64,000 bases of DNA, taken from NCBI GenBank assembly GCA_963833135.1, contig CAWHWW010000021.1, positions 96,907 through 160,906 of the forward strand, given 5' to 3'. The stretch is from an uncultured cyanobacterium (GTDB lineage Bacteria; Acidobacteriota; Vicinamibacteria; Vicinamibacterales; UBA2999). Within the stretch, counting starts at the first letter, position 1. Each line of letters starts with the position of its first letter. This document shows, piece by piece, positions 45,400-64,000 of the stretch. Below the pieces are notes generated by a model. It saw only the letters and a program-made list of their open reading frames with translations. It was not told where the DNA came from and searched no databases. A program made the translations under genes and the position numbers.

Positions 45400-45600
45400 T
45401 CATCCACGGATTTCACGGATTTCACGGATAACGGCGCGGACGGTTGCTCGCGCGTCGCTCGCGACGCGTCAGCAACGAATACGGAAACGAGTCGTGTCTG
45501 GTGCGGACTCGTTCCGCGACTCGCTGCTGACGTGCGGCCGGCCGAAGGCCGGCCAGCGAGCAACCGGTGAATCCGTGAATCGGTGTAATCCGTGGATGAC
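45400..45600. mobile_element. MITE-like structured element, copy 2 (TIRs TCATCCACGGATT..; ~130-nt multi-hairpin core)
   Basis: The left end 'tcatccacggatttcacggatttcacgg' matches the reverse complement of the right end 'tcatccacggattacaccgattcacgg'. The core has an outer stem ggttgctcgc/gcgagcaacc and hairpins cggaaacgagtc..gactcgttccg and ggccggcc-gaa-ggccggcc. Confidence 0.55.
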
Positions 45601-45604
45601 TCGA

Positions 45605-46269: not shown

Positions 46270-46272
46270 GCG

Positions 46273-47265
46273 TCACCTCGCTCGATCGAACGCCAGCACG
46301 GCATCGAGGATCGTCTCGGCCACGTCGACGAAGAAGCCGCGGTTGATCTTGTCGGCGGTGTCGGTGGGCTTGTGGTAATCGGCGTGATCTTCGACGCCGA
46401 AATACACGAACGGAATCTTCGCGGCATGGAACGGGCCATGGTCCGACTGGTTGGTCCAGTCGGCGACGCCGCCGGCGACTGCCACCGGCTTGTCGTGCCC
46501 AAACAGCACCGTGATCGGCGCGCGCCTGGCGACCTCCTCGAGCGGCGCTTTCAAATCCGGAGAGTGATACGTGCCGGCGATGAAAATCTCCCGCTTGTCG
46601 CTGCGGCTCACCATGTCGAGGTTCACGTTGAGCGCGATGCGATCCTGCGGCACCGGCGGCTTGACGAGAAACGCCTTCGCGCCCTGCAGCCCGCGCTCCT
46701 CGGCATCGAACGCCGCAAACAGGATCGTGTGGCGAAACGGCGTCTTCTGACAGAACGCGGCCAGCTCGAGGACGACAGCGACGCCCGACGCATCGTCATC
46801 GGCACCGGGATAGATCTGGCCGTCGCGAATGCCGAGATGATCGTAATGCGCGGACACGACGAAGTACGGCAGCTTCGGGTCGGTGCCGAGACAGAGTCCA
46901 AGCACGTTCGCGCCTTCACCGTCCTGCCGCCCGTTCATCGTCATGCGCGTGTAGGTGAACGGATGCACGTAAGCGCCGGACACCGGCTGCAGGCCGATGG
47001 TCTTGAACTGATCGACGATCCAGGCGCGCGCCGCAAGCCCGCCGGGCGAGCCGGCCGCGCGACCCTCGAACTTCGGATCGGCGAGCGTGGTCACCGCGCT
47101 CATCAACCGCTCGCTGTCGATCCGCAGCCTGGACTGCTGCGACTGCGACACCGGGCGCGACTCGCGCTGCTGCTCGATGCGCCGCGCTTCGAAGCGGCCC
47201 GCGACCTGGAACCAGATGAAGCCGGTGGCGACGATGCTGAGCCCGATGATCCTGCGTGTCTTCAT
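46273..47265 (-). CDS. M28-family aminopeptidase
   Basis: Intact ORF: 'VVSAHYDHLG..GADDDASGVAVVLELA..FAAFDAEERGLQGAKAF'. Confidence 0.85.
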   Translation of the reverse strand: MKTRRIIGLSIVATGFIWFQVAGRFEARRIEQQRESRPVSQSQQSRLRIDSERLMSAVTTLADPKFEGRAAGSPGGLAARAWIVDQFKTIGLQPVSGAYVHPFTYTRMTMNGRQDGEGANVLGLCLGTDPKLPYFVVSAHYDHLGIRDGQIYPGADDDASGVAVVLELAAFCQKTPFRHTILFAAFDAEERGLQGAKAFLVKPPVPQDRIALNVNLDMVSRSDKREIFIAGTYHSPDLKAPLEEVARRAPITVLFGHDKPVAVAGGVADWTNQSDHGPFHAAKIPFVYFGVEDHADYHKPTDTADKINRGFFVDVAETILDAVLAFDRAR

Positions 47266-47268
47266 ATG

Positions 47269-47779
47269 TTAGAGAGCCGTGACCATCACCCGATCGGTCT
47301 GCGGATCGGTGCCGAACAAGAATATGTGTTCCCCGGCATCGGCGAAACCACATTTCGCATAGAAGGCGCGGGCGCGATCGTTTCGTTCCCAGACACCCAG
47401 CCACAGCGTTTTCGCGCCGCGCTCCCGGGCCGCGATCTTGACGCGCTCCATCAGCGCCGCGGCAACGCCGCGACCGTGCCACGCGCGGTCAACGTAAAAA
47501 CGCCACAACTCGATCGGGGTCGGGACCGGTCACGCATTCGGGAACGTGATCCGTGCGCAGCATGCGCGTAGGCGATCGCCGCTCCGGCCTCTTCGACCAG
47601 CAGCGTCGTGATGTCACGATCGTTCAGCTCGCGCGTTTGTTGTCGATGCTGTATGCGCCGGCGAGGTAGAGCGCCATGTCGGCGGCGTCGTTGGTCGCGG
47701 CGAAGGTGTCGTAGAAGGTTCGGCGCGCCAGTTCCGAGACGATGGCGGCATCGGCGCCCGTTGCCAGGCGAATGTTCAC
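47269..47779 (-). CDS. GNAT-family N-acetyltransferase (frameshifted)
   Basis: Hand-read N-terminus 'VNIRLATGADAAIVSELARRTFYDTFA' joins '..LLVEEAGAAIAYA' (ORF 47451..47813) and ORF 47269..47508 ('RFYVDRAWHGRGVAAALMERV..AFYAKCGF'). Confidence 0.8.
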
Positions 47780-47880
47780 CGGGTGATCGTAACCCTCGAT
47801 CGTTCAGGCGCATGGAACCTCGGGAACTTTCGGTCCGTAAGGGTATCTAAGTCCACACGCCTGCCTTCGAAGGGAATGCC

Positions 47881-50367
47881 ATGGGTCTTTGGGAAGATGT
47901 TCGATTCGCTGCTCGCCTGCTTCTGAAAGACAAGTGGTTCACGCTGGTCGCCGCGGTCGCGCTGGCGCTCGGCATCGGCGTCAACGCCACGGTGTTCACG
48001 TTCGTGAACGCGGTGCTGATCCGCGGCCTGCCGATCGCCGATCCGGATCGCGACGATGGCGATCGGCTCGTTCGATCGCGTGCGCACCCGCACGCATGGG
48101 CGTCTCGTACCTCGACTATCGCGGACTGGACGCGAGGCGACCCGGACGTTCGACGCCACTCGGCGCCTACACCGGCACGATCGCCGAACGTCAGCGACGA
48201 AGGCCAGCCGCCCGAGCGCTTCAACGGCATCGCCATCTCCGCCAACGGCGTTCAGCATCCTCGGCATGCGCGCCGGTGCTCGGCCGCGACTTCGTGCCGG
48301 ACGACGATCGGCCCGGCGCGCCGCCGGTCGTGCTGATCGGCCACGGCATGTGGCAGAACCGCTACGGCAGCGAACCCGTCGCGTCGATCGGCCGCACCGT
48401 CCGCATCAACGACGTGCCGGCCGTCGATCATCGGCGTGATGCCGGAGGGCTTCAAGTTCCCGCAGAACGCCGACCTCTGGCAGCCGCTCGCTGCACGATC
48501 GCCGAATCTCGAGACGCAGAAGCGCAATCACGCGGCCGCTGCAGGTGTTCGGCCACCTCGCGCCCGGCGTGACGCGCGAGCAGGCGCAGGGCGAGCTGAT
48601 CAGCATCCGCCAGCAGCTCGAACCGCAGAATCCCGACACCAACAAGGACATCCAGGCGCACGGTCCAGACGTTCAACGAACAGCATGAACGGCGGCCCGA
48701 TCCGCGACGGTGTTCCTGTCGCTGATGGGCGCGGTGGCGTTCGTGCTGCTGATCGCGTGCGCGAACGTCGCCAACCTGCTGCTGTCGCGCGCCGACCAAT
48801 CGCGCGCGCGAGATTTCCGTGCGCGTCTCGCTCGGCGCGTCGCGCTGGCGCGTGGTCCGGCAGCTGCTGATCGAAAGCGTGCTGCTCGCGGTCATCAGCG
48901 GCCTCGCCGGCCTCGGCATCGCCGCGATCGGCATCCGCCTGTTCGATCGCGCCACGCAGGATGTCGGCCGGCCGTACTGGATCCAGTTCACGATGGACGG
49001 CAACGTCTTCGCCTTCTTCGCCGCCGATCTGCCTCGGCACCGGCATCATCTTCGGCCTCGCGCCGGCGCTGCACGTGTCGAAGACCGACGTCAACGAAAT
49101 CCTGAAGGAAGGCGGCCGCAGCGGCTCGGCCGGCGTGCGCGCGCGCCGCTGGACCGGCGCGCTGATGGTCGCCGAGCTGACGCTCACCGTCGTGCTGCTC
49201 GCCGGCGCCGGCTTCATGATGCGCAACTTCCTGACGATGTATCGCCTCGATCTCGGCATCGACACGTCGCAAGCTGCTGACGATGGCGCTGGCGCTGCCG
49301 GAGCGGAAGTATCCAGCCGTCGAACAGCGGCTCGCGTTCTACGAGCGGCTCGAGGAGCGGCTGCAGGCCAACCCGCAGCATCGAGAGCGTCACCATCACC
49401 AGCAACGCGCCGATGCAGGGCGGCTTCCTGCGCCAGCTCGCCATCGACGGCAAGCCGCTCGACCAGGGCCAGCAGGCGCCGAACGTGACGATGCTGACGG
49501 TCGATCCGCGTTACTTCAAGACGATCGGCCTGCCGCTGCAGCGCGGCCGCGACCTGACCGACGAAGACGGCATGACCGGCCGCGAGAGCGCGATCATCAA
49601 CCAGCGCTTCGCGGCGCTGCACTTTCCCGAACGAGGATCCGATCGGCCGCCGCATCACGCTCAGCATCGACCTGCAGGGCGGCGCGCCGCCGGCAGGGCG
49701 GCATCCCGGTCTCGCTGACCGCCACCATCGTCGGCATCGTGCCGAACCTCCGGCAGCGTGATTTCCAGCTGCCGGATCCGGATCCGATCGCCTACCTGCC
49801 GTTCCGCACCGATCCGCGCGGCTTCATGAACCTGCTGGTGCGCAGCTCCGGCGATCCGAACGCGATGACGCCGATCCTGCGCGAGGAAGTGCGCGCGATC
49901 GATCCCGACCTGCCGCTCTTCGGCATCCGCACGATGGACGCGGCGCTGGCACAGGCGCGATGGCCGTTCCGCATCTTCGGGACGATGTTCGCGATCTTCG
50001 CGTTCATCGCGCTGGCGCTGTCGGCGGTCGGCCTCTACGCCGTGACGGCCTATGCGGTGTCGCAGCGCACGCAGGAGATCGGCGTGCGCATGGCGCTCGG
50101 CGCGCAGGGCAACGAGGTGGCGTGGCTGTTCCTGCGGCGGTCGTTCGTGCAGCTCGGCGATCGGCCTGACGCTCGGCGTCGCCGGCGCGTTCGGCGTCGG
50201 CACGTTGTTCTCGCAGACGCAGTTGCTGGTCCAGAACCGCGCGGGCGATCCGATCACGATCGGCGGCATCGCGCTGCTGCTTGCTGATCGTCGCCAGCAT
50301 CGCGTGCTTCCTGCCGGCGCGCCGCGCGACGCGGCTCGATCCGCTGATCGCGCTTCGGCGCGACTAG
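47881..50367 (+). CDS. ADOP-type duplicated FtsX-like ABC permease (heavily frameshifted)
   Basis: N-terminus '[51 protein letters not shown]'. Colinear pieces lie in ORFs 47881.., 47889.., 48710.., 48819.., 48961.., 49283.. and 49413... The hand-read tail '..[18 protein letters not shown]' ends at 50367. Confidence 0.85.
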
Positions 50368-50383
50368 GGCCGCAGACGTCAAT

Positions 50384-50414
50384 CCCAGGGCCACAGAAGG
50401 CACAGATTACATAG
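50384..50414. repeat. word element (GGCCACAGAAGGCACAG..), left bracket of the qhp operon
   Basis: The reverse complement of 50387-50401 is 'gccttctgtggccct', identical to 57658-57672. Confidence 0.9.
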
Positions 50415-50423
50415 ATGCTCTCC

Positions 50424-51110
50424 CTAGGAAGAGCGCTCGAACGCTCGCGCGACGGCCGCGACGGGATCGCCCGTCGGGTCGTCCGCGATGATCCTCGCCA
50501 CGGTCCCGGTCACGTTCGCGACCGCAAAGCTCAGTCCCTTCAGATTCCTCTCGGGCGGCACGCCCGGAATCGGCCGCGGGAAACCGGAGGCGCGGAACGA
50601 TGCGCCATTGCGATCCAGGCGATCCAGCCGGCAGCGTGTCGCGCGGCACCGACCAGTCGAGCGACACCGACCACACGCCGGCGAGCGATCCCGGCAGCCA
50701 GCGAACACCGGCCTGCTCGCCCGCCGCGATCACGATCGCGCCGCTGTCGCGAAGGCGCTCGACGACGTCGGTCAGCGCGGGTTCGTGATCGGCATTCTGC
50801 GTACCGAGGCTGAGGTTGACGATCTGCGCGTCGAGCGGTCAGCGCGTACTCACAGGCAGCCACCAGCGCCGTGCCGGTCGCGGCCAGCTCGCGATCGAAC
50901 ACCTTGATCGCGAAGATCTCCGCGTCGGGCGCCTTCTCGCGAATGGCCGCAGTCACCGCCGTGCCGTGACCGAGACGATCGACGTAATCGTCGTGCGGCG
51001 ACGCCGTGCTCGTCGATGCCGATGCCGCCGGCGACGCCGCCGACATGCGGATGGGTCGCGTGCACGCCGCTGTCGATCACGGCGACGCGAACCGGGCGAG
51101 GCGATGTCAT
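50424..51110 (-). CDS. qhpE: subtilisin-like serine protease QhpE (frameshifted)
   Basis: 'VAVIDSGVH' (Asp) in ORF 50850..51110, '[10 protein letters not shown]' (His) in ORF 50540..51046, and '[12 protein letters not shown]' (Ser) in ORF 50424..50708. The start ATG overlaps the qhpF stop (ATGA). Confidence 0.75.
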
Positions 51111-52884
51111 CCGCTGCGTTGCACGCGACCTTGCTGAGGCCCACCTCCGCGCTGCAGCGCGTCGGGGGACAGGTCGATCTCGAACAGCCGCGCGAACGCC
51201 GCCGAGCGTTCGGCCAGCTCCGCGGACCGCCCTGATCGACGACGCGCGCGCCGTCGAGCACGACGACGTGATCGGCGGCCATCGCCACCTCGCGCCGATG
51301 CGTGATCAGGATGGTCGTGCGGCCGCGCATCACCGCGCGCGAGCCTTCGATGACCTGGCGCTGCGCGATCGCATCGAGCGCCGCGGTCGGCTCGTCCATG
51401 ACGAGCACCGCCGGATCGGCCAGAAAGGCGCGCGCCAGCGCGATGCGCTGCCGCTCGCCGGCCGACACCGCCAGGCCGCGCTCGCCGACCATCGTCGCGT
51501 ATCCCTGCGGCAAGGCCCTGGATGAAATCGCGCGATGCCCGCCGCCTCGGCGGCTTTTCGCACGTCGTCGGTCGTCGCGCGCCGGCCGCACGTAGCGGAT
51601 GTTCTCCTCGATCGTCGCGTGCAGCAGCGTCGGCTCCTGCTCGACGAGGACGATGTGCCGGCGGACGCTCTCGAGCTGCAGCGTCGCGCAGATCGTGGCC
51701 GTCGAGGCGAACGACGCCGGCGTCCGGATCGAGCAACCGCGTCGCGAGATAGGCGATCGTCGACTTGCCGACGCCGCTGCCGCCGACGAGCGCCACGGTC
51801 TGTCCGGGCCGCGCCGTGAACGACACTTCGTCGAGCACGCGCGACTGGCGATCGGTCCCCAGCGACACCGCGTCGAAGCGTCAGCTCGCCGCTCGGCGTC
51901 GCGATCGCCTCGGCATCCGGCGCCTCGACGACGTCGATCGGGGCATCGAGAATCTCGAGCACCCGCGACCACGACACCTTGGCCGTCGCGAGGCTCGCGT
52001 AGAGGCCCATCAGCGCCTGCGCCGGCGCGAACACGCGCATCTGATAGGCGAGGAACGCGCCCATCGTGCCGAGCGTCAGCGAGCCGTCGATGACGCGCAT
52101 GCCGCCGTAGAAGAACGCGATCGCCGAGCCGATCGACAGCACGGTGCCCGGCAGGCCGCCGGCAAAATAGGTGACGCGCTGCATGCGCATCAGCGCCTCG
52201 ATGAACGCGCCGTTCAGACCGCGAAACCGATCCTGCTCGCGCTGCTGCGCGTTCGACGCGACGACGAGCGACGTCGCCTGCAGCGTCTCGATCAGGAAGC
52301 TGCCGATGTCGGCGCTGCGCTGCCGCAGATCGGCGACGCGGCTCTCGAGCCGCCGTCCGGTAGATAGGCCAGCGCGACGAGGCTGATCGGCAGCGGCGCC
52401 AGCGCGATGATCGCGAGCCGCCAGTCGAGCCACACCATCATCGACCAGGCTGCCGACCAGGAACAGCACGTTGCCGACCCAGGCGAGCGCGGCTTCCGCG
52501 GCGACCCGCTGGATCTCGCTGATGTCGTTGTTGAGCCGCGACGACGATGTCGCCCAGCCGGGTGCGCGCGTAGAAGCGCGGCGACAGCCGCTGCAGGTGC
52601 GCGTAGAGCGACAGGCGCATGTCGAACAGGATCTCCGCCGACACGCGCGTGTAGCGCAGGCCGCTCGTCACGTTGAGGATGAAGCCGAGGACGCCGAGCG
52701 CGACGAACCAGTAAACGATGCGCCGGAGCGCGTCGAGGTCGCGGCCGATCAGCGCGTGATCGATCAGATCTTTCGAGAGGTACGGAATGACCAGCGTGGT
52801 CGCGGTGCTGATCAGGCTGATCGCGAGAACGAGGACCAGGCGCCGCCAGTACGGGACCAGATAGGCGAACACTCGGCGATCCAT
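51107..52884 (-). CDS. qhpF: ABC exporter (permease-ATPase fusion) QhpF (heavily frameshifted)
   Basis: TMD in ORFs 52438..52884 and 51330..52469. Walker A 'GGSGVGKST' in ORF 51107..51868. Signature/Walker B '[32 protein letters not shown]' in ORF 50953..51972. Confidence 0.8.
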
Positions 52885-52887
52885 CTA

Positions 52888-54032
52888 TCACTTGCGCGGC
52901 AGGATGAACGAGCGTCGTCGTCTGATCCGCGTTCATCTCGATCGTGCGCAGCTTCTTGTACGACGCGGCGTCGTAGACATCGATGGTCGCGCCGGCCTGG
53001 TAGACGTAGAGCAGCCGGCCGTTCGACGACACGCGCAGCGCCATGCGCGGACGGCCGTCGAACGGCGTGCGGCCGAGCAGCTTCTTCTGCGCGACGTCGA
53101 ACGCCCAGAATTCGTAGCGGCCGATCTGCTGCATCAGGCCGTAGGCGCGCTTGCGATCGGCGCGTCATCGCGAAGCTGACGCCTTCGGCCGGACCAATCG
53201 GCGTGAGATCGATCGTCTTGGCGACGAGGTTGACGCGGCCGAGATTCATGATGCGGCGGTTCTGGATCGGATCCTGGGTCGTGAAGAGGCCCGTGAAGAA
53301 GCCGGGATCGTCGTTGAAGTCGTCGACCGAGCCGAAGTTGACGCGGCCGAGTCCCGGCTCGATCGGCCGGCTCAGCGGCCAGGTGTCGACTTCGGTGAAA
53401 TTCGTCGTCTCGAGGATCAACACGTCGTCGCCGAAGAAGTAGAGCAGCTTGCCGTCGGGCGAGAAGCGGATGTTGACGAACTCGCGCTCTTCGCCGCGCG
53501 GCCACGGAATGGTGCGCGTGATCTTCTTCTGCGCGAGATCGTAGAACTGCATCGCGATGTCGCCGATCTCCCAGCGATCGATCTGCTTGGTCGCGGATCG
53601 CGTCAGCAGGATCAGGAACCGCTCGAGCGGATCGACCTGCATGCCGCGGATGCGGACCTTCTTGTTGCCCTCGCTCAAGCGTGAACGTCGACAGCGAGGC
53701 GCGCGATCGGGATGTCGACGATCTCGATCTTCTCGAGCGTCGAATCGAGCACGTAGAACTTCGCGCGCGACTGCGACAGCGTCAGCGAGCGCGGAATGCC
53801 GGTCTGCAGCTTGATGTCGCCGATCTTCGTCTCGGTCGCCTCGTCGAAGATCTGGATCGTGCCGGCGTAGGTCCCGATGTACATCAGGTGGTCGCCGCCG
53901 TTGACGGCGAGCGGCGCGGCCGGCTTCTGTGCGCCGGCCTTCGCCGTCGGCTACCGGGCCGCCTACGCACAAGGCTACGGCGAGGCCGCCGACGCCAAAG
54001 GCTCCGGCGAGCCGGGCTCGGGTCTTGATCAT
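52888..54032 (-). CDS. qhpB: quinohemoprotein amine dehydrogenase beta subunit (beta-propeller; frameshifted)
   Basis: Colinear pieces are ORF 52812..54032 (signal peptide plus middle), ORF 53675..53884 and ORF 52292..53134. The hand-read end is '..TTTLVILPRK*'. The assignment rests on position after qhpC and on propeller-like repeats. Confidence 0.75.
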
Positions 54033-54396
54033 TTCTTCTTCTCGTCGGCGGGAAGATCAGATCGATCTTGCGCCAGTCCTTCTGCGCGGCCGCGCACTTC
54101 GCCGTCCAGTCGGGCGCGTGATTCAGCTGATCGGGCACCTGCGCCGGCCAGAAGCAGCCCATGTGGCAGTCGAACAGATCGCGCTCGACCGGCTGGCACA
54201 GGCCGGCGGTGCCGCCGTTGCGATCGGCTTCCCATCCCGGCGAGAAGACGAGCGAGCAGCCGTTGGGAATGTGCGGCGGCTCGGGCTGTTGCGGCGGGCC
54301 GCCCTGCTGCAGGGCCACGACGTCTCTTGTCGCTTCACGCGCGGTGACCGACTCGACACGAGCGGCCTTGCGATTCACCGGTGTCAGATGCTTCAT
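54029..54396 (-). CDS. qhpC: quinohemoprotein amine dehydrogenase gamma subunit precursor (CTQ / thioether cross-linked peptide)
   Basis: ORF 53884..54396: '..GCSLVFSPGWEADRNGGTAGLCQPVERDLFDCHMGCFWPAQVPD..'. Cys/Glu/Asp/Trp spacing is identical to characterised QhpC. The true stop is probably the TGA at 54029 ('..LPADEKKK*'), reached after a 1-nt frame correction near 54050. Confidence 0.85.
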
Positions 54397-55848
54397 GAGA
54401 CTTTCTCCGGAACCTCTTCGTCATCGAACTGCCGCAGGAACTCGGGATTCCTCTCCGCGATCTCACCGTAGATCTCGAGGCAGGTGTGCGTCCAGCCGCG
54501 AATCCATTCGCAGTAGTGCAGGTTGGGCCGGTTGGTCGATCCGTAGCGCGTGTGCGCTTCGTGATAACAGCCGCCGGCGCAAATCGGCCGCGCCCAGCAC
54601 GTCGCGCAGTCGGTCTTGCTCGCGATGTGATGCGTCTGCAGGAACTCCTGCTGCTTCTCCCACGACACGCCGTCGCTGCACGTTGCCGAGCGAATGATCC
54701 TCGGATCCGGCGAAGCGATGGCAGAGCGCGACCTCGCCGTCGGTGGACACGCCCATCAAGCCGATGCCCGCGCCGCACGGATACGCCTTCGCATGGCCGT
54801 GATGCAGTTCCTGCAGCGTCTCGCGGATGTTCGAGAAACCGTGATGGCGATTCTGCAGCGCGGCCTCGAGATAATCGCCGGCCAGATCGCGGAACTGCGC
54901 CAGCAGGTGATCGAAGCCGCCGTCCGAGATCGCATAGTCGCGTCCCGGCGCCGTCGTCACCGGCGCGAAGCCGACTTCCCAGAAGCCGAGCTCCTCGGTG
55001 AGGTGGCGATAGATCTTGCGGACGTCGAGCGTCTGCCGCGTCAGCGTGACGCGCGCGCCGATCGGACGCGAGCGATGCCGCGCCAGCAGCGCCTTGATCT
55101 TCGGCGCCGCCACCGCGTAGCTGCCGGCGCCGTTGTTGAAGACGCGGAACTTGTCCTGCATCTCCTCCGGGCCGTCGATCGAGATGGTCACGCCGACGCG
55201 CTCGTCGGCGAGGAACTCGATCACGTCCGGCCGCAGCAACGTCGCGTTGGTGGTCAGGCTGAAGTCGATGTCCTTCCCGACTTCCGCGGCCCGCCGACGC
55301 GCGTAGGCAATCGTCGACTTCAAGCACGTGGAAGTTCATCAACGTCTCGCCGCCGAAGAACGTGATGTGCGCGTGCGGGTTGTCGCGCGACTCGCGCAGC
55401 GCGAACTCGACCGCTCTCGCGCGCCGTCGCCTCGCTCATGAACTTCGGCTGCTTGCCGTTCTCGGTATCGACGATCTTGTCCTCGCCGTACTCGTAGCAA
55501 TAGGTGCAGGCCAGGTTGCACTGGTTGGTGACGTTGACGACCAGCGTCTGCAGCGGCACCGGCTTCAGCGGAATGATCTTCGGCGATCGGAGCCGGCCGC
55601 ACCGATGATTCGCCGAGCGCGCGGACGCGCTACAGCTCGGCGATCGTGTCGCCGACCTCCGCGGCATCGAACCGCGACGCCAGCTCGCGAGTCAAGTCGT
55701 CGACCGGGCGCGGACCGTCGGCCAGCGAATCGAGCATCGCCGACGAACAGTCGTCGAGCGCGAAGACCGCCGCGCTCGGCACCAGGTAGAGGAACCGGCG
55801 GCCGGCCGCCTCGAACGGATGAAACTCGCGCAGCGCGATACTGGTCAT
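54393..55848 (-). CDS. qhpD: radical SAM / SPASM peptide maturase QhpD (frameshifted)
   Basis: ATG at 55848 overlaps the qhpA stop. 'NVTNQCNLACTYCYEYGE' (CxxxCxxC) in ORF 55320..55667, middle in ORF 54463..55323, SPASM Cys cluster 'CATCWARPICAGGCYHE' in ORF 54393..54668. Confidence 0.85.
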
Positions 55849-57580
55849 TGGCCTACCGTCGGATCGAAGCGCATGTAGAGCGGCACGGTGACGAGCAGGT
55901 GCGCGCGGGCGCGCAGCGTCGACGCCGGCTTGCCCGCCGACCGCGTCGCCGGCCACTTTCGCGACGACCCACACATCGCCGATGTTGTTGCGGCTGCCGG
56001 AGCGCGCCGGATTCGGCCCGTCGACATTCGGCGTGAAGCGGCCCGTCGCTTCGTTCAACGTGCCGACGAACTTGATGTCGTCGTCGTTGTAGGTCGCGGC
56101 GTACTCCTCCATGCTCCACGCCGCGTCGACGAGGCCCAGCTCGATGTCGTCGGGCGAATCCGGCTTGCCGTCGGCGCCGTTGCTGTATCCCCACGCTTCG
56201 AACTGCGCGAGCATCTTCGGGAACGTGTTGCCGCCGACGCGCGCCATCGCCCAGTCGGGCTTCACCTTGATCGTGTCGATCTTGTCGTAGACGGCCAGCG
56301 CCTTCGGACGCGACGCGCCGGCCACGAACAGATCGCGCGCTCCGGCGGCGGCGGTCGCGGTGACGTCCACGGCGACCGTCGCGAGGTCTGGCGTCGCGCT
56401 CACGACGCGCGTCACGGTGATGCCGGGACCGAGATCGATGTCCGACGGTTCGAAGCGACGTGCCGAGGTTGGTCGCCGTAGATCTTCAGCTCCTGCGCCG
56501 ACGCGCCCTGGCGCAAGCGCCGTGCGATCGGTGCCGAGCACGCGCGTCTCGGCGCCGACGCGTTCGAGCTTCACGTCGATGCCGATCTCGTCGTAGCCAC
56601 CCGCAAACCAGCGGCCCTCCATCGACCGCCAGTTGCGATCGACCATCATCACTTCGCGCATCGCCGAGTCCGCGGCCTGGGTCGACGAGCTGCCGCGCCA
56701 CTGGTAGCCGGTGTAGACGATGGCGCGTCCGGTGCGCGTGATGGTTTCGCCCGTGCGCGCGACCCGATACGTCGCCGACGTCGTGAACTCTTCCGGCGAC
56801 GACGGGCTCGCGGTGATCGTGACGCGGCCGTAGATCGCGCCCTTGCCGAGCTCCCATCCGGTCATCGCCCACGTGCCGTCGAGCCGGGCCGGCCGCATGT
56901 TCGCCGACCATGCCGTCCACTCCGGCGTCTTCAGCGGGAAGGTCTTGGCCAGATGGTCGAGCGTTTTCTCGATCGGATGCCGATTGTCCGGCGGGCGTCC
57001 GTCGCTTGGTGCGTCACGCGGCGGCGGCGGGCCCGAGCGCCGGAACGCCTGGTTGTCGACCAGCGGATAGCAGTCCGCGATGCATCGCGATCAGCAGATC
57101 CCACTCGGTCTTCGTGCGCCGCTGCGAGATCACGCGGCCAAGCGAGTGGCACTTGTTGCACGTCGATTCCGCGTCGGCGTTCGCCGTGTACTTGAAATCG
57201 ATCAACCGCCGCTCGGCTTCCCACGCGGCCGGCTTCGCTTCTTCCGGCGCGAGGCCAAGATTCGTTCGACGAGGTACTTGACGACCTGTCGCGCTGTCGC
57301 CGGCTCGATGTTCAAGCCGTTGAGCGCCGCCATACGCTGGATGATCGTCTGCCATCCTTCCGGCGTGTTGCGGACTGAACGAGATACGCGACATCTGGCC
57401 CTTGTCGTCGGGCCGATGACAGGATCCGCACGCCTTCTGCACGGTCGCATCGGTGACCGGGATGCCTTCTTCCGGCTTGGCGGTCGGCGCGGCCGTCGGC
57501 TGCGGCGCCTGCGCGCGCAACGCAACCACGAGCGTCGCGGCAAGAACAAAAGTGGTGGCGGCAAGAGCTCGATTCCGCAT
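55845..57580 (-). CDS. qhpA: quinohemoprotein amine dehydrogenase alpha subunit, dihaem cytochrome c (frameshifted)
   Basis: ORF 57014..57580 carries the signal peptide and the CGSCH and CNKCH motifs. ORF 55630..56898 carries the following domains. The tail '..LLVTVPLYMRFDPTVGQ*' is in ORF 55845..56027. Confidence 0.85.
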
Positions 57581-57587
57581 GTGATTC

Positions 57588-57688
57588 TGAGCCTTCTGTG
57601 CCTTCCGCCTTCGCGCTTCGCGCTATGGCGGCAGTCTGCGGCCCTGGTGTCTTCCGCGCCTTCTGTGGCCCTCAGCTTTCTGTGGCCG
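57588..57688. repeat. word-repeat array (GCCTTCTGTGSC words), right bracket of the qhp operon
   Basis: 'gccttctgtgccttcc' (57591), 'gccttctgtggccct' (57658) and 'ctttctgtggcc' (57676). It fills the qhpG-qhpA gap. Confidence 0.9.
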
Positions 57689-59068
57689 TCATTCTGACAC
57701 AAGCCACCCGCGCGCAATCGCGGTCGCCACCGCGAACAGGAAGTCGGGTAATGGCGCGGATCCGGCCTTGCGAACGTAGGCGTCATACAAATCTGGCACG
57801 TGACTCGTCCCCGGCGCCAGCTCGACCAATGCGACGAGGTCGATGTTCCGCACGTAGCGGATTCCGCCGGGGTGCCGTGACGACACGAGGTGAGGCTCGA
57901 AGACAATCTCGCGGCCTCGAATGCAGGGTTTCGGCTGCACGCTCGCCGCCGATCCGATTCGGTGACGAAACGAATCGCGTGCCTTCAACTCATCGAAGGC
58001 CCGGCGAATCTCATCCTGGTCAGCCGCGTCCTCTGCCTCGCCATCGTCCGATCGCTCGTCCCAGAACGGGTGGTGATGGCCGGTCGCGGCGCCGGCAAGG
58101 AAGCGACGGCTCTCGCGCGACAGGTGCTGCTCGATCTCGTGTTCGCGCGCCGAAAAGAACTCGAAGGCGTGTACCCGCATCGACGGATTCGCAATCGCGG
58201 TGTGGACGGCGATCGCCGCGAGCCAGCCGGAGGCCAACGCCTTCTTCACTCCCGCGGAAGACAGCGGATCGATGAACGAGCCGGCGTCGCCCACGAGCAG
58301 CCATCGCTCTCCGGCGTAGGCGCTGGCGCGATACGGCGACGCATCGAACCCGCGAGGACCATCGGCGAGCCTGGCGTTGACGACCAGCTCCCTGAAGACG
58401 CGGGTCTTGTTGATCTCGGCGAGATAAACATCCGCAGCCGATCCGCCGCGCGCCAGTTCCGATCGCTGCGGATCGATCATCGCCGCGATGTGACGAACAC
58501 CGTCGGCGATTGGCAGCGACCACATCCAGCCGTCCTCGTACGATTCGATCAGCGTGTGCGAGTCGTCCGGCACCGGCCAGCGTTCAGCCCGCCACTCGCC
58601 GACCAGGGCAATCGTTCGCGGGCTGTCGTCGAATTGGCGCACGCCCGTGCGCCGCGCGATCACGCCGGCGCGGCCCGTGCAGTCGAGAACGAAATCTCCG
58701 GAGTACCCGGACACATCGAGTTCGGCGATCGTGGTTCGTTCGACGTGAACACCCGCCGCCAGAGCACGACCGAGCATCACCTCGGAGAGCAGTTCGACAT
58801 CGAGCTGCCACCCTCTCGCGCCCTCGGCGAACGGCTCGACGCGCGCGGCGGCTCCGCCCCACCACACCGTGTTGCCGGTGGAGCGAACGAAGCCGGCGCG
58901 CTCGATCGCATCGCTGACGCCGATCGTTTCGAACAGCTTGGCGCAGCTGGGGGGAATCGACACCGCGAGCCCGCGGCCCGGTGGCGGCCGCGTGATCAGG
59001 CGGACCGGGTGACCCCAGGCGGCGAGAAGGATCGACGCGGCTGCGCCCGCAGGCCCGCCGCCGAGCAC
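57689..59068 (-). CDS. qhpG: FAD-dependent monooxygenase QhpG-like
   Basis: Intact ORF with dinucleotide fold 'LGGGPAGAAASILLA'. The assignment rests on flavoprotein-monooxygenase-like sequence plus adjacency to qhpA. Confidence 0.7.
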   Translation of the reverse strand: MLGGGPAGAAASILLAAWGHPVRLITRPPPGRGLAVSIPPSCAKLFETIGVSDAIERAGFVRSTGNTVWWGGAAARVEPFAEGARGWQLDVELLSEVMLGRALAAGVHVERTTIAELDVSGYSGDFVLDCTGRAGVIARRTGVRQFDDSPRTIALVGEWRAERWPVPDDSHTLIESYEDGWMWSLPIADGVRHIAAMIDPQRSELARGGSAADVYLAEINKTRVFRELVVNARLADGPRGFDASPYRASAYAGERWLLVGDAGSFIDPLSSAGVKKALASGWLAAIAVHTAIANPSMRVHAFEFFSAREHEIEQHLSRESRRFLAGAATGHHHPFWDERSDDGEAEDAADQDEIRRAFDELKARDSFRHRIGSAASVQPKPCIRGREIVFEPHLVSSRHPGGIRYVRNIDLVALVELAPGTSHVPDLYDAYVRKAGSAPLPDFLFAVATAIARGWLVSE

Positions 59069-59073
59069 GATGA

Positions 59074-59928
59074 CTATTTCTTCTGCTCCACTTCGGCAAT
59101 GAAGGCGCGCGCCTCGCGGATCACGTCATCGGTGATTCCCATGTGGCCCTTGTCGGTGTAGTGCACGTAGCGATGCTGCACGCCCGCGGCCTTCAACTTC
59201 TCGACCATGTCGGCCGCCTGCTGCACCGGCACCGACTTGTCATCATCCGAATGAATCACCAGCAGCGGCTTCATCGACGGGCTCACGTGATTGATCGGCG
59301 ATGCATGGCGGCGCGCCTCTTCGACACCAGCCACCGGCTTGCCCTGAGCGGAGTCGAAGGGCGTCCACAGATTGCCCCACGACAGCGAATTCAATTCGTA
59401 GGTGGCGGCCACGCTGATCACTGCCTTGACGTCGGAGCGCGCCTTCTCCCAGCCGCCGACTCTCGGAAAGCCGGCTTCGCCGGCGGTCGCGAAGAGCGAG
59501 ACCATCTGGCCGCCGGCCGACTGGCCGATCAGATACACACGTTCCGGATCGATCCGGTACTCCTCGGCATGCGCGTGAAGCCAGCGAATCGCGCACAACA
59601 TGTCGAGATAGGGAGCAGGGGCGGGCGAACCGCCGACCAGCCGGTAGTCGATCGACATGGCGAAATAGCCGAACTCGGCCCACTGCGTCACCTTGATGCT
59701 GCTGGCGTCGGCGCGGTTGCCGGCGCGCCAGCGGCCGCCATGCACCGAGATGATGGCGGGCTTCAGCGATGGCCCGTCCGGATAGGCGATGTTCGCAAGA
59801 AGCGCGGCGCCTTCGACCCGCCCGTAGATGACGTCGGTCTTCGTGACGACCGGTGCGCTCGGTTGCGCGACGGCAAGCACGGGCGTCAGCGCGAGAAAAA
59901 TGGTGGCGACGAACACGTTACGCATCAA
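59074..59928 (-). CDS. secreted alpha/beta hydrolase (esterase/lipase type)
   Basis: Intact ORF: oxyanion 'SVHGGRW', nucleophile elbow 'GQSAGG', C-terminal 'DKGHMG'. Confidence 0.8.
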   Translation of the reverse strand: MMRNVFVATIFLALTPVLAVAQPSAPVVTKTDVIYGRVEGAALLANIAYPDGPSLKPAIISVHGGRWRAGNRADASSIKVTQWAEFGYFAMSIDYRLVGGSPAPAPYLDMLCAIRWLHAHAEEYRIDPERVYLIGQSAGGQMVSLFATAGEAGFPRVGGWEKARSDVKAVISVAATYELNSLSWGNLWTPFDSAQGKPVAGVEEARRHASPINHVSPSMKPLLVIHSDDDKSVPVQQAADMVEKLKAAGVQHRYVHYTDKGHMGITDDVIREARAFIAEVEQKK

Positions 59929-59952: not shown

Positions 59953-61396
59953 TTACTTGACGTCGGCATCGAACGCACCGGTCACGATCGTTCCGGCGCG
60001 TTTCATCTGCACGAAAATCCGATATTGCCCGGGCTCAGGAAAGCCATATGGAAAGCTCACCGTCGCGGGCGGGGTCGTCACGTGCTGCGCGTGTCCAGTG
60101 TTCGACGGCATTGCCAGATCCAGCGCGGCCATCGGCGCCGATCCCGACGGATGCACGTGCGCAAACACCTTCAGATCCTTGCGGACGAAAATGGCGTGGC
60201 CCGGCATCCCCATGTAGAGCTCGAGATCCTTGACCGGCTCGCCATGTTCATCGTCCGCGCGGAAGGTGAACGTCGTCAGCCGTTTCGGCACGAGCGGCGT
60301 GTTGTCGCGCAGCCAGCTGATCTTGGTCCCGCCTTCGCTCTCCGCCGGACCAGAGCTGCGGCGCGGCAGGGTCTCGTCGCTTGCGGACCACGCGCTGTCG
60401 TCGCCCGACAACGGCACGCCTTGAATGCCCGCGGTCTCGATCTGCCCGGTGACCGTTTCTGATACGCCGGTCGCGTGCACCAGATCCGCGAACAGCTCGT
60501 AGTTGCCGGCCGGGATCGGCGGCAGGCGGTGCTCGAACGTTCCGGGCCCCGCTTCACGCGGATGCAGGTGCCACAAGCGATCCAGGGCCGGCGACATCAC
60601 GAACAGGTGCATCGGGTGGCCGTGATCGGGAACGAAATCGTCGAGGCGGCGGGAGCCGATCCATCCAGGGTCGGTCAGCGACAACGAGAGGGTCGAGTCG
60701 GGCATGACCCGCGGCGAGCCAATCAACGGCTTGTAGACGTAGCGATCGTACGCCGTCGCTTCAACGCTCCACCACATGCTGCCGAGATATGCGATGCCGA
60801 TGACGACGATCGTGGCGATCGCCCCGGCGATGCGACCGCGCCGCTTCGCGCGCGGATCGAGCGTCTCGCCCGCGCCGAGCTTCGCCTCTCTCGCCATCGC
60901 CGAGACGATGCCGACAAGTCCGCCGCCGAGCAGCAGCATGAACACGAAGAGGATGGCGCGCAGGCCCGGGCTCATCGCGAGCGTCGATTGCGGCAACGTC
61001 GGAACCGGCACCGACATCGTGCCCTCACCGCGATCGCCTTTGACGGTGATGCGCACCTGCCAGGCGCCGGCGCCCATCAGCCACAAGTGGCCGGTGAATA
61101 GTCTGGGATCGTCGTCGGAGCGGACCGCGCGATCCGGAACGGGCGCGAACTTCGCGCCGTCGCCGGTCAGCGGCAACGGGACGATGTGCACGTCACGGAC
61201 ATCGTCGCCGGTCGTCAGCACATCGACGTCGGCGACACCGGGAATCGCGATGCGGCGGCCTGACCGTGACCAGCAATCGATATGGGCCGGCGTGGGCCTC
61301 GAGAAACACGTCGGGGCTGCCGACGTGCGCGCGCGCCGGACATTGCAGCACTGTCGCGACGAACAGCGCTGCAACGAGAGCTGTGCGCGTCGTCAC
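59953..61396 (-). CDS. His/Met-rich secreted/membrane protein, possible metal (copper?) handling (frameshifted once)
   Basis: GTG at 61396 overlaps the upstream stop (GTGA). Signal peptide '..VLQCPARA' is followed by 'HVGSPDVFLEAHAGPY' (ORF 61193..61453). ORF 59953..61374 has two TM helices and the motifs 'HGHPMHLFVMS..WHLHP' and 'MGMPGHAIF..FAHVHPSG'. Confidence 0.5.
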
Positions 61397-62522
61397 CGAC
61401 GGACCTTCTGCATCGCGCGGCCGAGATGCATGCCGATCCATGCCATGAACCACGCGAGCACCGCCGCGATGGCCATGTTGCGCCAGAACAGCGCGGCGGT
61501 CGGCTCCCGATAGAAGAATTCATAGCGCGCGAGCGCCGAGCGCTGGCGGCGTCGCGAAGTCGACGTAGCCGCCGCCGAAGAACCAGTTGCGCGCGGCGGG
61601 CGTCATCATGAAATCGGCGAAGGGCCACTGCACCGCAATAAACGCCGCGAAGAATGCGACGCCGACAACGAGCGCGCGGACGAGCGGACGCCACGAGACC
61701 GTGCGCTGCATGATCAAGTCCATCACGAACGCCGGGACGATCAGCAGCAGCGGAAATTCCCACGGTATGAAATGGGTGACTTCGCGAAACACCGGACCGA
61801 GTTTCGGCTCGGCCGGAAAAAGCGGCAGCATCCAGAGGAACGCCAGCGCGAACACGCTGTAGACGGCGGTGATGATGGTGCTTGCCCACTTGCGCTCGGA
61901 TGCGATCGACAGGGCCGCGAGAATCGCCGGCGTGCCGATGAAGACGACGATGTAGAAGCGCGCGTTGTGTTGATCGGCACGGCTGATCGATTCAAGCTTG
62001 ATGAGCAGCGACTCGCAGAGCACGGTGCCGCCGACATAGAGAAAGAGGCGTTCGAGCGCCGGGCCGCATCGCCGCGCTCGCGCGATTCATGAACGCGAGC
62101 ATCAGCATCACCGTGCCGAACTCGATGCCGAAGAATCCTGCCGCCAGCACCATGTGCGGCGGGCTGATGATGCGCACGTCGAGGCCGTAGGCGTTGTGCC
62201 ACCAGTCGTCGAACGGCGCCGACGCGAGCATCGCGACGCCGCCCCACGCGCAGATGAACGCGCCGAGCGGGCCGCGCAGTCCCCAGATGCGGACGCTGAC
62301 GTCCTTGTGCTCGGCGTTCCTGCCGAAGGTCGTGCTGAAGATCAGGTAACCGGCGGCGATCCCGGCGAGGATGCCGCACGCGTAGATCGCCATGTGCGGC
62401 GCCGACCAGAACGTGTCACGCCCGATCGATCGATGCCAGGAAATATCCCAGTAGCCGCCGACGTACGCTGAAGTGACGGCGAGCGCCGCGCACCACAGAT
62501 ACCAGGGAATTCTTTCCTTCAC
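61393..62522 (-). CDS. polytopic membrane protein of unknown function (frameshifted)
   Basis: GTG at 62522 overlaps the upstream stop. ORF 61992..62573 ('GGYWDISWHRSIGRDTFWSAPHMAIY') joins ORF 61520..62023. The hand-read tail is '..FWRNMAIAAVLAWFMAWIGMHLGRAMQKVRR*'. Confidence 0.5.
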
Positions 62523-63154
62523 TCGTAGCTCACGCCGAGTTTCTTCAACGCTTCCGGCGGACACCCGTTCCATCGCGCCACGGATCGATTGCCCATGTAT
62601 TGCAGATCATCGATGCCCATTCGCGTCGTCCAGAAACCGCTCGCGGTGAGATCGCGGAAGTTGCTGAAGAACGCGACGCCGTGCGCAAATTCCGGCTTCG
62701 CCTTCGACGGCCACGCGATGTCGTCGAGCACGGCGGTCCGTTCGGCCTCGGCGCAATTGAGAAACGTCTTGTCGAAGCGCTTCTGGCACTCGACGTCGAG
62801 CCACGCCAGCCCGCCGCGCATCGCGACCTGCCGCGCCGGCTGGTCGATCATCATGAAGTCCATGAACTCCGGCACGCCGGCATCGGTGGCGCTGCCCGAT
62901 CGTTCGTCCTTTGGAATGACGATGTCGGCGAGCACGCTGCACGAGCTTGAATTCGGTGGCGGTGAAGAACTTCGGCACGAACGGTTTCGCCGTCGTCGCC
63001 GCGCGCGCGGCCTGCGCCGATGCGGCAGCCTGCGCCGCTTCGGCGTCCGTCCACGCAAAGGTCGCGGCCGGCGCGGCGAGCAGGATCTTGAGCACGTCGA
63101 CGTGCGGCCTGTCCGCCGTAGCTTGGCGGAGGGGAAGCTCGCGAGACGATTCAT
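62519..63154 (-). CDS. gluconate 2-dehydrogenase subunit 3-family protein (frameshifted)
   Basis: ATG at 63154 overlaps the GMC stop (ATGA). 'LADIVIPKDERSGSATDAGVPEFMDFMMIDQP..' lies in ORF 62519..63436; the N-terminal 'LKILLAAPAATFAWTDAEAAQ' lies in ORF 62607..63095. Confidence 0.75.
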   Translation of the reverse strand: MNRLASFPSAKLRRTGRTSTCSRSCSPRRPRPLRGRTPKRRRLPHRRRPRARRRRRNRSCRSSSPPPNSSSCSVLADIVIPKDERSGSATDAGVPEFMDFMMIDQPARQVAMRGGLAWLDVECQKRFDKTFLNCAEAERTAVLDDIAWPSKAKPEFAHGVAFFSNFRDLTASGFWTTRMGIDDLQYMGNRSVARWNGCPPEALKKLGVSYE

Positions 63155-64000
63155 ATGCTGCCCGCCTTCCTCTGATTGGCGATGTATTCGCTCGTGCGCA
63201 TGGCCAGCGCGAGGATGGTCCAGGTCACGTTCTTGTCCGGGTTGGTCACGAACGGCCCGCCGTCGGTGACGAAACAGGTTGCGGCAATCGTGCGCCTGGC
63301 AGTTGCTGTTCAGCACGGACGTCTTCGGATCGTGGCCCATGCGGACGCAACCGACCTCGTGGATGATGCGGCCTCCCGGCTCGATGCCGTAGCCTTGCGC
63401 GGCCGTCGGCATCGGCGTCATCGGCGTCCCGCCCATCTCGATCGATGATGGCGCGGAAGGTTTCCTGCATGTGCTTGACCTGCTTGAGCTCGTGGTCCGA
63501 CCACTGTCCAGTGGAAGCGCAGCACCGGAATGCCCCAGCGATCCACCACCGCCGGATCGATCTCGCAGTACGAGTTTTCATTGGGGATCATCTCGCCGCG
63601 TCCTGCGAAGCCCACCGTGGCGCCGTAGAAGCGACGGTAGTCGTCCTTCAATTGCTTGCCGTAGCCGCCGCTCGACACCAGGCCTCCGTCTCCAGCGGTG
63701 GTGTGATAGAGATGGACACCGCCCAGCGTGCCGAAGCCGGGCATCCGCCGGCCGCCGCCGAGCTCGATGTGGTAGCCGCGCGGGAAATCGAGTTTCTTGT
63801 TGTCGCCCCACCACGGCATGTAGAGATGCGATCCACTGGCGCCGTCTTCGTTGTGCGGCACGCTGTTCATCATCTTCGGGATGAAGCCGCGAACGCTGGT
63901 GCCGGTCGTGTCGGTGAGGTACTTGCCGACGACGCCGCTCGAGTTGCCGAGGCCCTGCGGAAAGCGAGACGACTTCGAGTTGAGCAACAGCCGCGCGGAT
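63151..64000 (-). CDS. GMC-family FAD oxidoreductase, C-terminal part (5' end outside window; frameshifted)
   Basis: ORF 63418..63987 joins pieces of ORFs 63246..63581 and 62519..63436 ('GGRIIHEVGCVRMGHDPKTSVLNSNCQAHDCRNLF'). The hand-read end is '..ANQRKAGSI*'. Confidence 0.8.

Follow-up and report, generated by a model that had tools for sequence, protein, structure and literature searches.

The closest described systems to the locus analysed here are the quinohemoprotein amine dehydrogenases (QHNDHs) of Paracoccus denitrificans (qhpADCBEFGR; PDB 1JJU for the enzyme and 7CTQ for QhpG) and Pseudomonas putida (PDB 1JMX). The qhp operon is present in more than 1300 species, and the arrangement, order, and strands of its genes are variable (PMC7876137). 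QHNDH has also been reported in Acidobacteria in the literature. The MADH/mau (TTQ) and LodA/GoxA (CTQ; flavoproteins LodB and GoxB) systems share with QHNDH a protein-derived tryptophylquinone whose formation depends on a dedicated flavoprotein or maturation enzyme, but they lack thioether crosslinks made by a radical SAM enzyme and a dihaem alpha subunit and have a different subunit architecture; neither is the family of the cluster described below.

The window (the whole stretch of 64,000 nucleotides that was analysed) contains, judged by sequence similarity and gene position, the same seven functional components as the P. denitrificans operon, encoded by seven genes on the minus strand from 59068 to 50424 in the order qhpG-A-D-C-B-F-E. 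The genes and the two repeat-bearing elements associated with them are as follows:

57692..59068, minus strand: qhpG, FAD-dependent peptidyl-tryptophan dihydroxylase, one open reading frame of 459 amino acids
57581..57691, minus strand: qhpG-qhpA spacer, 111 nt, in which a GGCCACAGAAGGC-type unit occurs three times
55845..57580, minus strand: qhpA, dihaem c-type cytochrome alpha subunit, 7 frameshifts
54393..55848, minus strand: qhpD, radical SAM/SPASM maturase, 4 frameshifts and one in-frame TAG
54029..54396, minus strand: qhpC, precursor of the gamma subunit, comprising an approximately 40-residue leader and an approximately 80-residue core, one frameshift
52888..54032, minus strand: qhpB, beta-propeller beta subunit, about 5 frameshifts
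51107..52884, minus strand: qhpF, ABC exporter with transmembrane and nucleotide-binding domains, about 9 frameshifts
50424..51110, minus strand: qhpE, small subtilisin-like leader protease, 3-4 frameshifts
50387..50401, plus strand: AGGGCCACAGAAGGC, exact inverted copy of a qhpG-qhpA spacer unit (57658-57672)

An earlier note on this DNA had recognized all seven QHNDH components, and the reconstructed proteins indeed match qhp families, with QhpF being a generic ABC exporter placed by type and position. The same note called the system complete, which holds for the gene content after reconstruction but not for the record itself, in which qhpA-E are not open reading frames. We consider it very probable that this is a genuine qhpGADCBFE operon of a Vicinamibacterales-like Acidobacteriota genome, encoding QHNDH and its maturation machinery, and that the disruptions of qhpA-E are assembly errors and not decay.

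Frameshift-aware reconstructed proteins were scored against the NCBIfam models with their curated cut-offs; raw frame fragments gave family hits as well. QhpA (TIGR03908, QH_alpha; 497.5 bits against a cut-off of 274.35), QhpD (TIGR03906; 582 bits against 453), and QhpC (NF037958, QH_gamma; 126-128 bits against 50) all scored above them. For the other three proteins the best matches were likewise qhp families, with scores below the cut-off: QhpB with TIGR03907 (QH_beta; E=1.8e-20, 73.4 bits against 223.2, covering model positions 32-330 of 338), QhpE with NF049966 (150.5 bits against 165), and QhpG with NF049967 (199 bits against 240). These scores are similar to those of the intact orthologues in the short-read-assembled relative L001 (a SPAdes-named contig; 67.6, 160.9, and 194.9 bits, respectively), and we suspect that the NCBIfam cut-offs for G, E, and B were tuned on proteobacterial sequences.

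The individual proteins carry the expected motifs. QhpA has a signal-peptide-like N-terminus and two haem motifs, CGSCH (57430-57416) and CNKCH (57160-57146), and it matches 1JMX_A (E=6.7e-72) and 1JJU_A (E=2.1e-55). The P. putida enzyme is thus the best structural-sequence match for alpha and also for gamma (E=5.9e-22), although sequence identity is moderate and it differs from the window in the same respects as that of Paracoccus. The radical SAM motif of QhpD (CX3CX2C) is present as CNLACTYC at 55520-55497. QhpE matches Pfam Peptidase_S8 and has its Asp, His, and Ser in the motifs VIDSGV, HGTAV, and GLSFA. QhpF is devoid of a peptidase domain and gives full-length matches to MsbA/HlyB-type exporter models; the model library held no QhpF-specific model, so the protein was assigned by its type and by its place between B and E, which all 32 loci share, and export of the gamma peptide is its predicted role. 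Pairwise phmmer searches of the PDB with QhpB returned only a generic propeller, the protein being too divergent from the Paracoccus beta subunit for pairwise detection. A profile built from 12 clade B proteins was therefore used in place of the pairwise search, and it matched 1JMX_B end to end (E=5.2e-8), the only PDB beta subunit that it matched. By these sequence comparisons, QhpB is a homologue of QH_beta, a family of seven-bladed propellers, that lies outside the curated equivalog and appears divergent from the proteobacterial beta subunits.

In pairwise sequence comparison the QhpG protein resembles halogenases, being closer to CmlS (E=3e-27) than to QhpG 7CTQ (E=1.5e-12); it also matches the GoxB and LodB maturase models weakly. 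Together with the QhpB score (73 bits against 223), this closeness could be read to mean that the locus is a qhp-like RiPP or cofactor cluster with another product or substrate instead of an amine dehydrogenase. That reading is very improbable. At the profile level the order is reversed, with 199 bits for the QhpG model against 112 bits for the CmlS model. In addition, the CmlS motif YVKKPS, whose KK presumably holds the catalytic lysine, aligns with FVRSTG in the window protein, in which Arg-Ser replaces KK. CmlS is moreover the closest structural neighbour of genuine QhpG (PMC7876137), and alpha, gamma, and D all score above equivalog cut-offs, with a gamma core that is 50-60% identical to the solved gamma subunits and keeps the functional residues.

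The gamma subunit itself aligns with 1JJU_C and 1JMX_G without gaps, and all eight crosslink and CTQ residues are conserved (Cys7, Glu16, Cys27, Asp33, Cys37, Cys41, Trp43, and Asp49); the crosslinks themselves (three thioethers plus CTQ) are predicted from this alignment. The leader, at about 40 residues, is longer than the 28 residues of P. denitrificans. The single frameshift in qhpC lies 5 codons 5' of the stop and extends the recorded frame to 53887, and the C-terminus of the relatives reads ...IFP(A)DEKKK followed by the stop. QhpC is identical to one intact orthologue at 115 of 116 positions, and its identity to Vicinamibacterales/Acidobacteriota relatives is 88-94%. Two long proteins with 25 and 5 apparent matches to the QhpC core (P0126 and P0270, respectively) were set aside as unrelated repetitive sequences.

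A fifth conserved cysteine was observed in QhpC, Cys101, whose counterpart in the Paracoccus peptide is Ala at position 61. This cysteine is conserved in the gamma subunits of the acidobacterial clade and in a wider subset of QhpC families. It precedes the conserved Asp of the KDWRK motif by exactly six residues. Since this C-x5-D spacing is identical to that of the known Cys27-Asp33 thioether, this large, unstudied branch of QHNDH enzymes could conceivably have an additional crosslink, which would be either a fourth one within the peptide, installed by QhpD, or a novel link between subunits. We regard such a crosslink as very unlikely; if true, it would widen the chemistry of QhpD.

Judging from the homologous systems of Paracoccus and Pseudomonas, the product of the operon would be an amine dehydrogenase with CTQ, and its maturation may be outlined as follows. 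QhpC would be synthesized with its leader of about 40 residues, the tryptophan precursor of CTQ would be dihydroxylated by QhpG, the leader would be cut off by QhpE, and the crosslinked peptide would be moved to the periplasm by QhpF. There, the gamma peptide would join QhpA, the secreted dihaem subunit, and QhpB, the beta-propeller, in an enzyme that oxidizes primary amines. The sequence of these steps is likewise proposed from the same homology.

The mapped gene coordinates bear out the order G-A-D-C-B-F-E on the minus strand, and ATGA overlaps were found where they had been noticed, at 55845-55848, 54393-54396 (qhpD into qhpC), 54029-54032, and 51107-51110. At the B/F junction the sequence is TGA-TAG-ATG, leaving a 3-nt gap. 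The four overlaps, this gap, the short G-A distance in three relatives (7-19 nt in L001, L002, and L005), and the preserved gene order suggest that the qhp genes are co-transcribed as an operon. The start of qhpG is uncertain: the first in-frame ATG, GTG, or TTG is the GTG at 59068, and a start there would eliminate the first beta-strand before GGGPAG.

Compared with P. denitrificans, the central A-D-C-B block is ordered in the same way, whereas qhpG is located 5' of A and does not follow F, and F comes before E. The earlier note had taken this order as non-canonical and rearranged, but the same order GADCBFE is found in all 32 complete related loci, which are mostly from Vicinamibacterales metagenome-assembled genomes (MAGs). 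Given these loci and the already published variability of the operon (PMC7876137), an order peculiar to this genome is not supported; qhpGADCBFE is the standard, fixed arrangement of this lineage. A further difference from P. denitrificans is the lack of an AraC-type qhpR nearby, as had been claimed: a Pfam scan of the coding-like segments of the window found no HTH_AraC or HTH_18 domain at E<=1e-5 (for the qhp genes and the ADOP permease flank, identification came from searches other than this segment scan). The AraC-type QhpR belongs to the model operon and does not define the enzyme family.

The suggested Acidobacteria-like origin of the DNA agrees with its relatives. Most of the closest loci come from Vicinamibacterales/Acidobacteriota MAGs; their nucleotide identities reach about 83%, a value not exceeded by any locus of the GTDB species set, and protein identities to the relatives range from 59 to 99%. 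The clusters of these MAGs (L001, CAZVLS010000001.1; L003; L004; L035) are identical to that of the window in gene content and GADCBFE order, and their flanks are syntenic with it (ADOP permease, GNAT, and M28 peptidase); the ADOP permease that adjoins the cluster in the window was identified through its intact L001 orthologue. The window differs from them in its longer, repeat-bearing G-A spacer, in an additional repeat-bearing stretch of 42 nt after qhpE, and in the state of its genes, which are intact in the short-read relatives L001 and L004 but full of single-base insertions in the window record. The interest that the earlier note saw in the phylogenetic placement is not supported, since QHNDH in Acidobacteria is already in the literature and NCBI already names proteins of these relatives as QHNDH subunits, among them Vicinamibacterales proteins called 'quinohemoprotein amine dehydrogenase subunit gamma' that are 88% identical to the QhpC of the window.

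About 30 frameshifts, nearly all of them single-base insertions, interrupt qhpA-E, leaving none of these genes intact as recorded, and qhpD has in addition a TAG at 55632-55630 where the relatives carry CAG. These frameshifts and the nonsense codon, which leave none of A to E untouched but spare qhpG, could be taken to indicate a recently inactivated pseudogene array, in which QHNDH has been lost and the frameshifts and the stop are true mutations. This reading is very improbable on several grounds. Single-base insertions are at least as dense in the unrelated ADOP permease/GNAT flank (5.5 per kb) as in qhpA-E (3.6 per kb), and dxr, uppS, and rseP, located elsewhere in the window, are each divided between frames and cannot all be dead; dxr and uppS are essential genes. 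Decay confined to the cluster was accordingly rejected, as flanks and housekeeping genes have the same defects. Across 45.6-59.1 kb, the single-base changes unique to the window comprise 53 insertions and about 5 deletions, and this excess of about 10:1 is opposite to the deletion bias that would be expected of bacterial pseudogene decay. After removal of the insertions, dN/dS relative to the relatives is 0.09-0.17 (A, D, and F), within the 0.07-0.22 of intact relatives among themselves and without a sign of relaxed constraint. The near-identity of QhpC to its intact orthologue also argues against decay.

The insertions in the ADOP flank, the divided housekeeping genes, the insertion excess, and the dN/dS values therefore lead us to conclude that the frameshifts and the TAG most likely arose as errors in an assembly prone to insertions and corrected in patches. 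A Viterbi frame tracker based on codon usage gave about one segment per gene in L001 and L004 and many frame switches in the window and in L035 (an MFD-named MAG). Three features of the record weigh against the error reading. qhpG, whose frame alone in the cluster is unbroken, has no insertions in 1.4 kb where about 5-7 would be expected at the neighbouring rate, so the error density is patchy. The insertions avoid homopolymers, with 26% beside an identical base against an expected 50%; homopolymer error is the usual nanopore signature, and the pattern seen here is not that signature. The CAG-to-TAG change in qhpD is of a kind that indel polishing does not remove.

Short inverted repeats bracket qhpA-E, with an exact 15-nt match between 50387-50401 and 57658-57672. 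The downstream copy, AGGGCCACAGAAGGC, lies 23 nt 3' of the qhpE stop within the 42-nt stretch missing from the relatives, and the 13-mer core of the repeat occurs at only these two sites in the window. These observations would fit a horizontally acquired mobile cassette, bounded by inverted GGCCACAGAAGGC repeats and recently received from Proteobacteria. Such an origin is extremely improbable, however, as the synteny of the whole cluster and its flanks extends to loci, mostly of Vicinamibacterales, in which the downstream copy is missing, the GC content is just mildly above the window average, the proteins resemble those of the relatives (at the identities given above) and are distant from the proteobacterial structures, and no transposase or integrase is adjacent. 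Comparable short repeats are moreover found between genes at many other places in the window, and the repeats thus look like a genome-wide REP-like phenomenon. The list of exact repeats (11-14 nt or more) consists mostly of GC-rich coding background, and the informative pairs are those with both arms in non-coding sequence. GGCCACAGAAGGC-like units are also present in the same G-A spacer of L003, L004, L029, and L037; the long spacer is absent from L001, L002, and L005. Rfam searches of the G-A spacer and the post-E region at a permissive E-value gave chance-level matches only, and the two intergenic stretches with repeats showed no significant RNA fold (z = -1.9 and +0.1). A candidate sigma-54 site at GGCACAGAAGGCTC was rejected by eye, its GG-to-GC spacing being 2 nt too short.

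The contig carries patchy single-base insertion errors at a rate of 3-5 per kb, and any gene call, pseudogene count, or "unusual" feature in the window is to be relied on only after polishing. The cluster, which belongs to a soil Acidobacteriota genome, is an ordinary operon of seven genes for a known amine-oxidizing enzyme. It extends the many Vicinamibacterales genomes with QHNDH by one, which carries little weight outside annotation, and it fits soil Acidobacteriota using primary amines as a carbon, nitrogen, or energy source.

Six-frame inspection of 50300-59200 placed the coding strand of the quinohemoprotein amine dehydrogenase (qhp) cluster on the minus strand and revealed a sole clean ORF, qhpG (59068-57692, 459 aa); from 57580 down to 50424 the genes are legible only by hopping between frames. 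The raw frame fragments already match the NCBIfam families QH_alpha, quino_hemo_SAM, QH_gamma, and QhpG, and the earlier note's identification of the genes as qhp components was therefore right from the outset. An intact QhpD fragment, back-translated and used as a query, found 37 related loci among GTDB species representatives, the closest with ~83% DNA identity to the window and most labelled as Vicinamibacterales or Acidobacteriota MAGs. Among these, L001 (contig CAZVLS010000001.1, whose name marks a SPAdes short-read assembly) carries seven clean, tightly packed qhp genes. A frameshift-aware dynamic programme, used to align the L001 proteins with the window, reconstructed full-length proteins, and nearly all of the frameshifts required were of the "+1 base" type.

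Components of the qhp cluster: L001 coordinates; residues identical to L001 and frameshifts needed in the window; NCBIfam score of the window protein
G, flavin monooxygenase: 6357-7742; 276/460, 0 frameshifts; QhpG, 199 bits (cut-off 240)
A, dihaem alpha subunit: 7749-9461; 471/569, 7 frameshifts; QH_alpha, 497.5 bits (cut-off 274)
D, radical SAM/SPASM maturase: 9458-10918; 424/484, 4 frameshifts; QhpD, 582 bits (cut-off 453)
C, gamma subunit precursor: 11034-11381; 115/116, 1 frameshift; QH_gamma, 127.7 bits (cut-off 50)
B, beta propeller: 11381-12520; 310/377, 5 frameshifts; QH_beta, 73.4 bits (cut-off 223), spanning model positions 32-330 of 338
F, ABC exporter: 12527-14248; 491/572, 9 frameshifts
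E, subtilisin-like leader protease: 14248-14937; 173/228, 4 frameshifts; QhpE, 150.5 bits (cut-off 165)

Against the family models, A, D, and C thus score above the NCBIfam cut-offs and B, E, and G below them. The lower scores reflect divergence of the lineage, not damage, as the intact L001 orthologues score alike (B 67.6, E 160.9, and G 194.9 bits). A profile built from twelve B proteins of the clade matched the beta subunit of Pseudomonas putida (1JMX_B) over its entire length (E=5.2e-8), and QhpA matched 1JMX_A with E=6.7e-72. The two haem motifs, CX3CX2C, the subtilase Asp/His/Ser motifs, and a Walker A motif were located in the sequence. F, by sequence a generic full-length ABC exporter, was assigned as the putative QhpF from its type and conserved position.

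The ATGA overlaps were found at all four positions named in the earlier note, and the B/F junction reads TGA-TAG-ATG. When the insertion at 52914 is corrected, the C-terminus of B, as we read the sequence, becomes ...ADQTTSSFILPRK*, which agrees with the clade consensus and stops at the TGA of this junction. Between G and A lie 111 nt in the window and 7-19 nt in L001, L002, and L005, a closeness that suggests that all seven genes may be carried on one transcript. The order GADCBFE recurs in 32 of 32 related loci of sufficient length, among which QhpD identity falls as low as ~67%, and the genes left in five truncated loci fit it. QHNDH in Acidobacteria was already in a 2021 preprint, and the top matches among 2559 homologues from a QhpC database search already bear the name [quoted passage not shown]. 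The gene order and phylogenetic placement, in which the earlier note saw much of the interest, are therefore neither new nor surprising. Four loci labelled Cyanobacteriota, Bifidobacteriaceae, or Acidimicrobiia (L003, L031, L035, and L037) have the same cluster and flanks with ~73-83% nucleotide identity to the window; as MAG contigs they were probably mis-binned or mislabelled.

The broken frames could reflect decay of the cluster or errors in its sequence. When 45.6-59.1 kb was aligned by MAFFT with nine contigs, eight of which have names given by short-read assemblers, 53 single-base insertions and about five single-base deletions were unique to the window. The insertions are not restricted to the qhp cluster: the unrelated flank 45600-50366 contains 26 of them (5.5 per kb), qhpE-A contains another 26 (3.6 per kb), and qhpG is free of them. 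Bacterial gene decay is expected to show a deletion bias, and the 10:1 insertion bias, being the opposite, is wrong for decay. A codon-usage Viterbi tracker divided L001 and L004 into roughly one segment per gene, and on both the window and L035, an MFD-named MAG, it produced dozens of same-strand frame switches. Pfam searches of the tracked segments found dxr, uppS, and rseP each divided between two frames, with the N-terminus of dxr at 35426-35645 in one frame and its remainder in another, and uppS split at ~36988; dxr and uppS are essential genes. Once the insertions are taken out, A, D, and F have dN/dS values of 0.09-0.17 against relatives, indistinguishable from the 0.07-0.22 among intact relatives. 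We consider it very probable that the frameshifts arose through errors of assembly or sequencing. This reading leaves unexplained the patchiness of the errors, their avoidance of homopolymers (26% of insertions adjoin an identical base versus 50% expected), and an in-frame TAG in qhpD (55632-55630, minus strand) where relatives L001-L004 have CAG (…AEL*RVRALG versus …AELQRVRALG). As the last is a substitution and not an indel, indel polishing alone would leave qhpD broken. Conjecturally, such patches would arise if a hybrid assembly had used long-read sequence to bridge the gaps between its short-read contigs.

Frameshift-type breaks also occur in many genes outside the cluster (2674-5738, 18581-20121, 22568-23978, 26306-29915, 33133-37520, 37521-39229, 47270-50331, and 61260-63500), and clean blocks lie at 5781-8405, 9032-11257, 14269-16626, 23979-25521, and 57693-59074 (qhpG). 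The window looks like an insertion-prone assembly that was corrected in patches.

The alignment of QhpC to the two solved gamma subunits (1JJU_C and 1JMX_G) is ungapped, and QhpC retains Cys7, Glu16, Cys27, Asp33, Cys37, Cys41, Trp43, and Asp49. The offset of 40 in this alignment implies a leader of ~40 residues, whereas that of the model organisms has 28 (PMC7876137). The core contains a fifth Cys (Cys101, window 54094-54096; equivalent to Paracoccus position 61), six residues upstream of the conserved Asp in KDWRK (C-x5-D spacing). It is present in all ~30 QhpC recovered from related loci and in many more distant cluster representatives, and is lacking in the solved Paracoccus and Pseudomonas enzymes. 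Judged from sequence, Cys101 could form an extra crosslink or could be a free or inter-subunit Cys. Covariation gives no support for a fourth crosslink, because the KDWRK Asp is kept with or without the Cys in the QhpC sequences compared, and the literature searched makes no mention of one.

Aligned to the halogenase CmlS, G has Arg-Ser opposite the Lys-Lys pair of the CmlS motif YVKKPS, which we take to hold the catalytic lysine. The halogenase resemblance of G is expected, since PMC7876137 reports that genuine QhpG has CmlS as its closest neighbour in structure. No in-frame ATG, GTG, or TTG lies upstream of the beta1 strand of G (…AEEIVIVLGGGPAG; window 59062-59095). The first candidate start is the GTG at 59068, from which the product would begin MLGGGPAG; another GTG at ~59091 is one base off the qhpG frame and in the same frame as the stop of the upstream hydrolase. 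The A-run 59075-59080 may contain a small indel error.

The region upstream of G contains an alpha/beta hydrolase gene (59077-59928), unknown ORFs of membrane-like type, and genes for a GMC oxidoreductase and a partner that resembles gluconate-2-dehydrogenase subunit 3. Downstream is a convergent, frameshifted gene for an ADOP-family duplicated permease (47927-50331), identified via its intact L001 orthologue (855.7 bits), and beyond it GNAT, M28 peptidase, and ankyrin genes. In agreement with the earlier note, the Pfam-scanned segments of the window yielded no AraC-type regulator. Coding signal is absent from a 1-kb stretch at 11258-12287, within which 2.1 copies of an 86-nt unit lie at 11435-11612.

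Short inverted repeats do bracket qhpA-E. The 13-mer GGCCACAGAAGGC occurs, with at most two mismatches, at only four sites in the window: the G-A spacer has three of them, and the fourth, which is exact and inverted, follows qhpE.

AGGGCCACAGAAGGC-type units flanking qhpA-E
57591-57603, minus strand, qhpG-qhpA spacer
57658-57672, minus strand, qhpG-qhpA spacer
57675-57687, minus strand, qhpG-qhpA spacer
50387-50401, plus strand, exact inverted copy 23 nt past the qhpE stop

The exact inverted match extends over at most 15 nt. The downstream copy, found in none of the relatives, lies within a 42-nt stretch (50368-50409) that they lack. The G-A spacers of L003, L004, L029, and L037 contain units related to GGCCACAGAAGGC, and other relatives have different octamer arrays or no spacer. 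In L006, L008, L010, L017, and L022 the tandem octamers differ, with GGTGATTT up to ~10 times, and L022 has arrays of the GGAGGCTT type with their inverted complement behind them. Arrays of short repeats that are unrelated in sequence have the spacer as a hot spot. Searches of the bracket repeat regions identified no Rfam family, and neither a significant fold nor a promoter or terminator.

Tandem Repeats Finder and a repeat list showed 7-9-nt tandem arrays in many intergenic regions of the window, often with a reverse-complement array nearby, as a hairpin, or several kb off in another intergenic region, bracketing one or more genes.

Intergenic tandem arrays
14212-14260 and 29941-30095
16666-16697 and 19961-19993
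20447-20482 and 21043-21070
26661-26815
27589-27659 and 27694-27731
31249-31339 and 33031-33121
35649-35887 and 45405-45601

GGTGCGTAC arrays flank an amidohydrolase gene (31432-32982) on both sides, CCCCAAG/CTTGGGG arrays lie around 16767-19742, and exact inverted pairs with both arms non-coding look strongly over-represented in the window. The intergenic arrays look REP-like and, given their inverted partners in many intergenic regions, the bracket seems to be less a feature of the qhp system than one case of a REP-like phenomenon that is genome-wide. The cluster itself is an ordinary qhp operon, correctly recognised and arranged as is typical of its clade, recorded in error-rich sequence.
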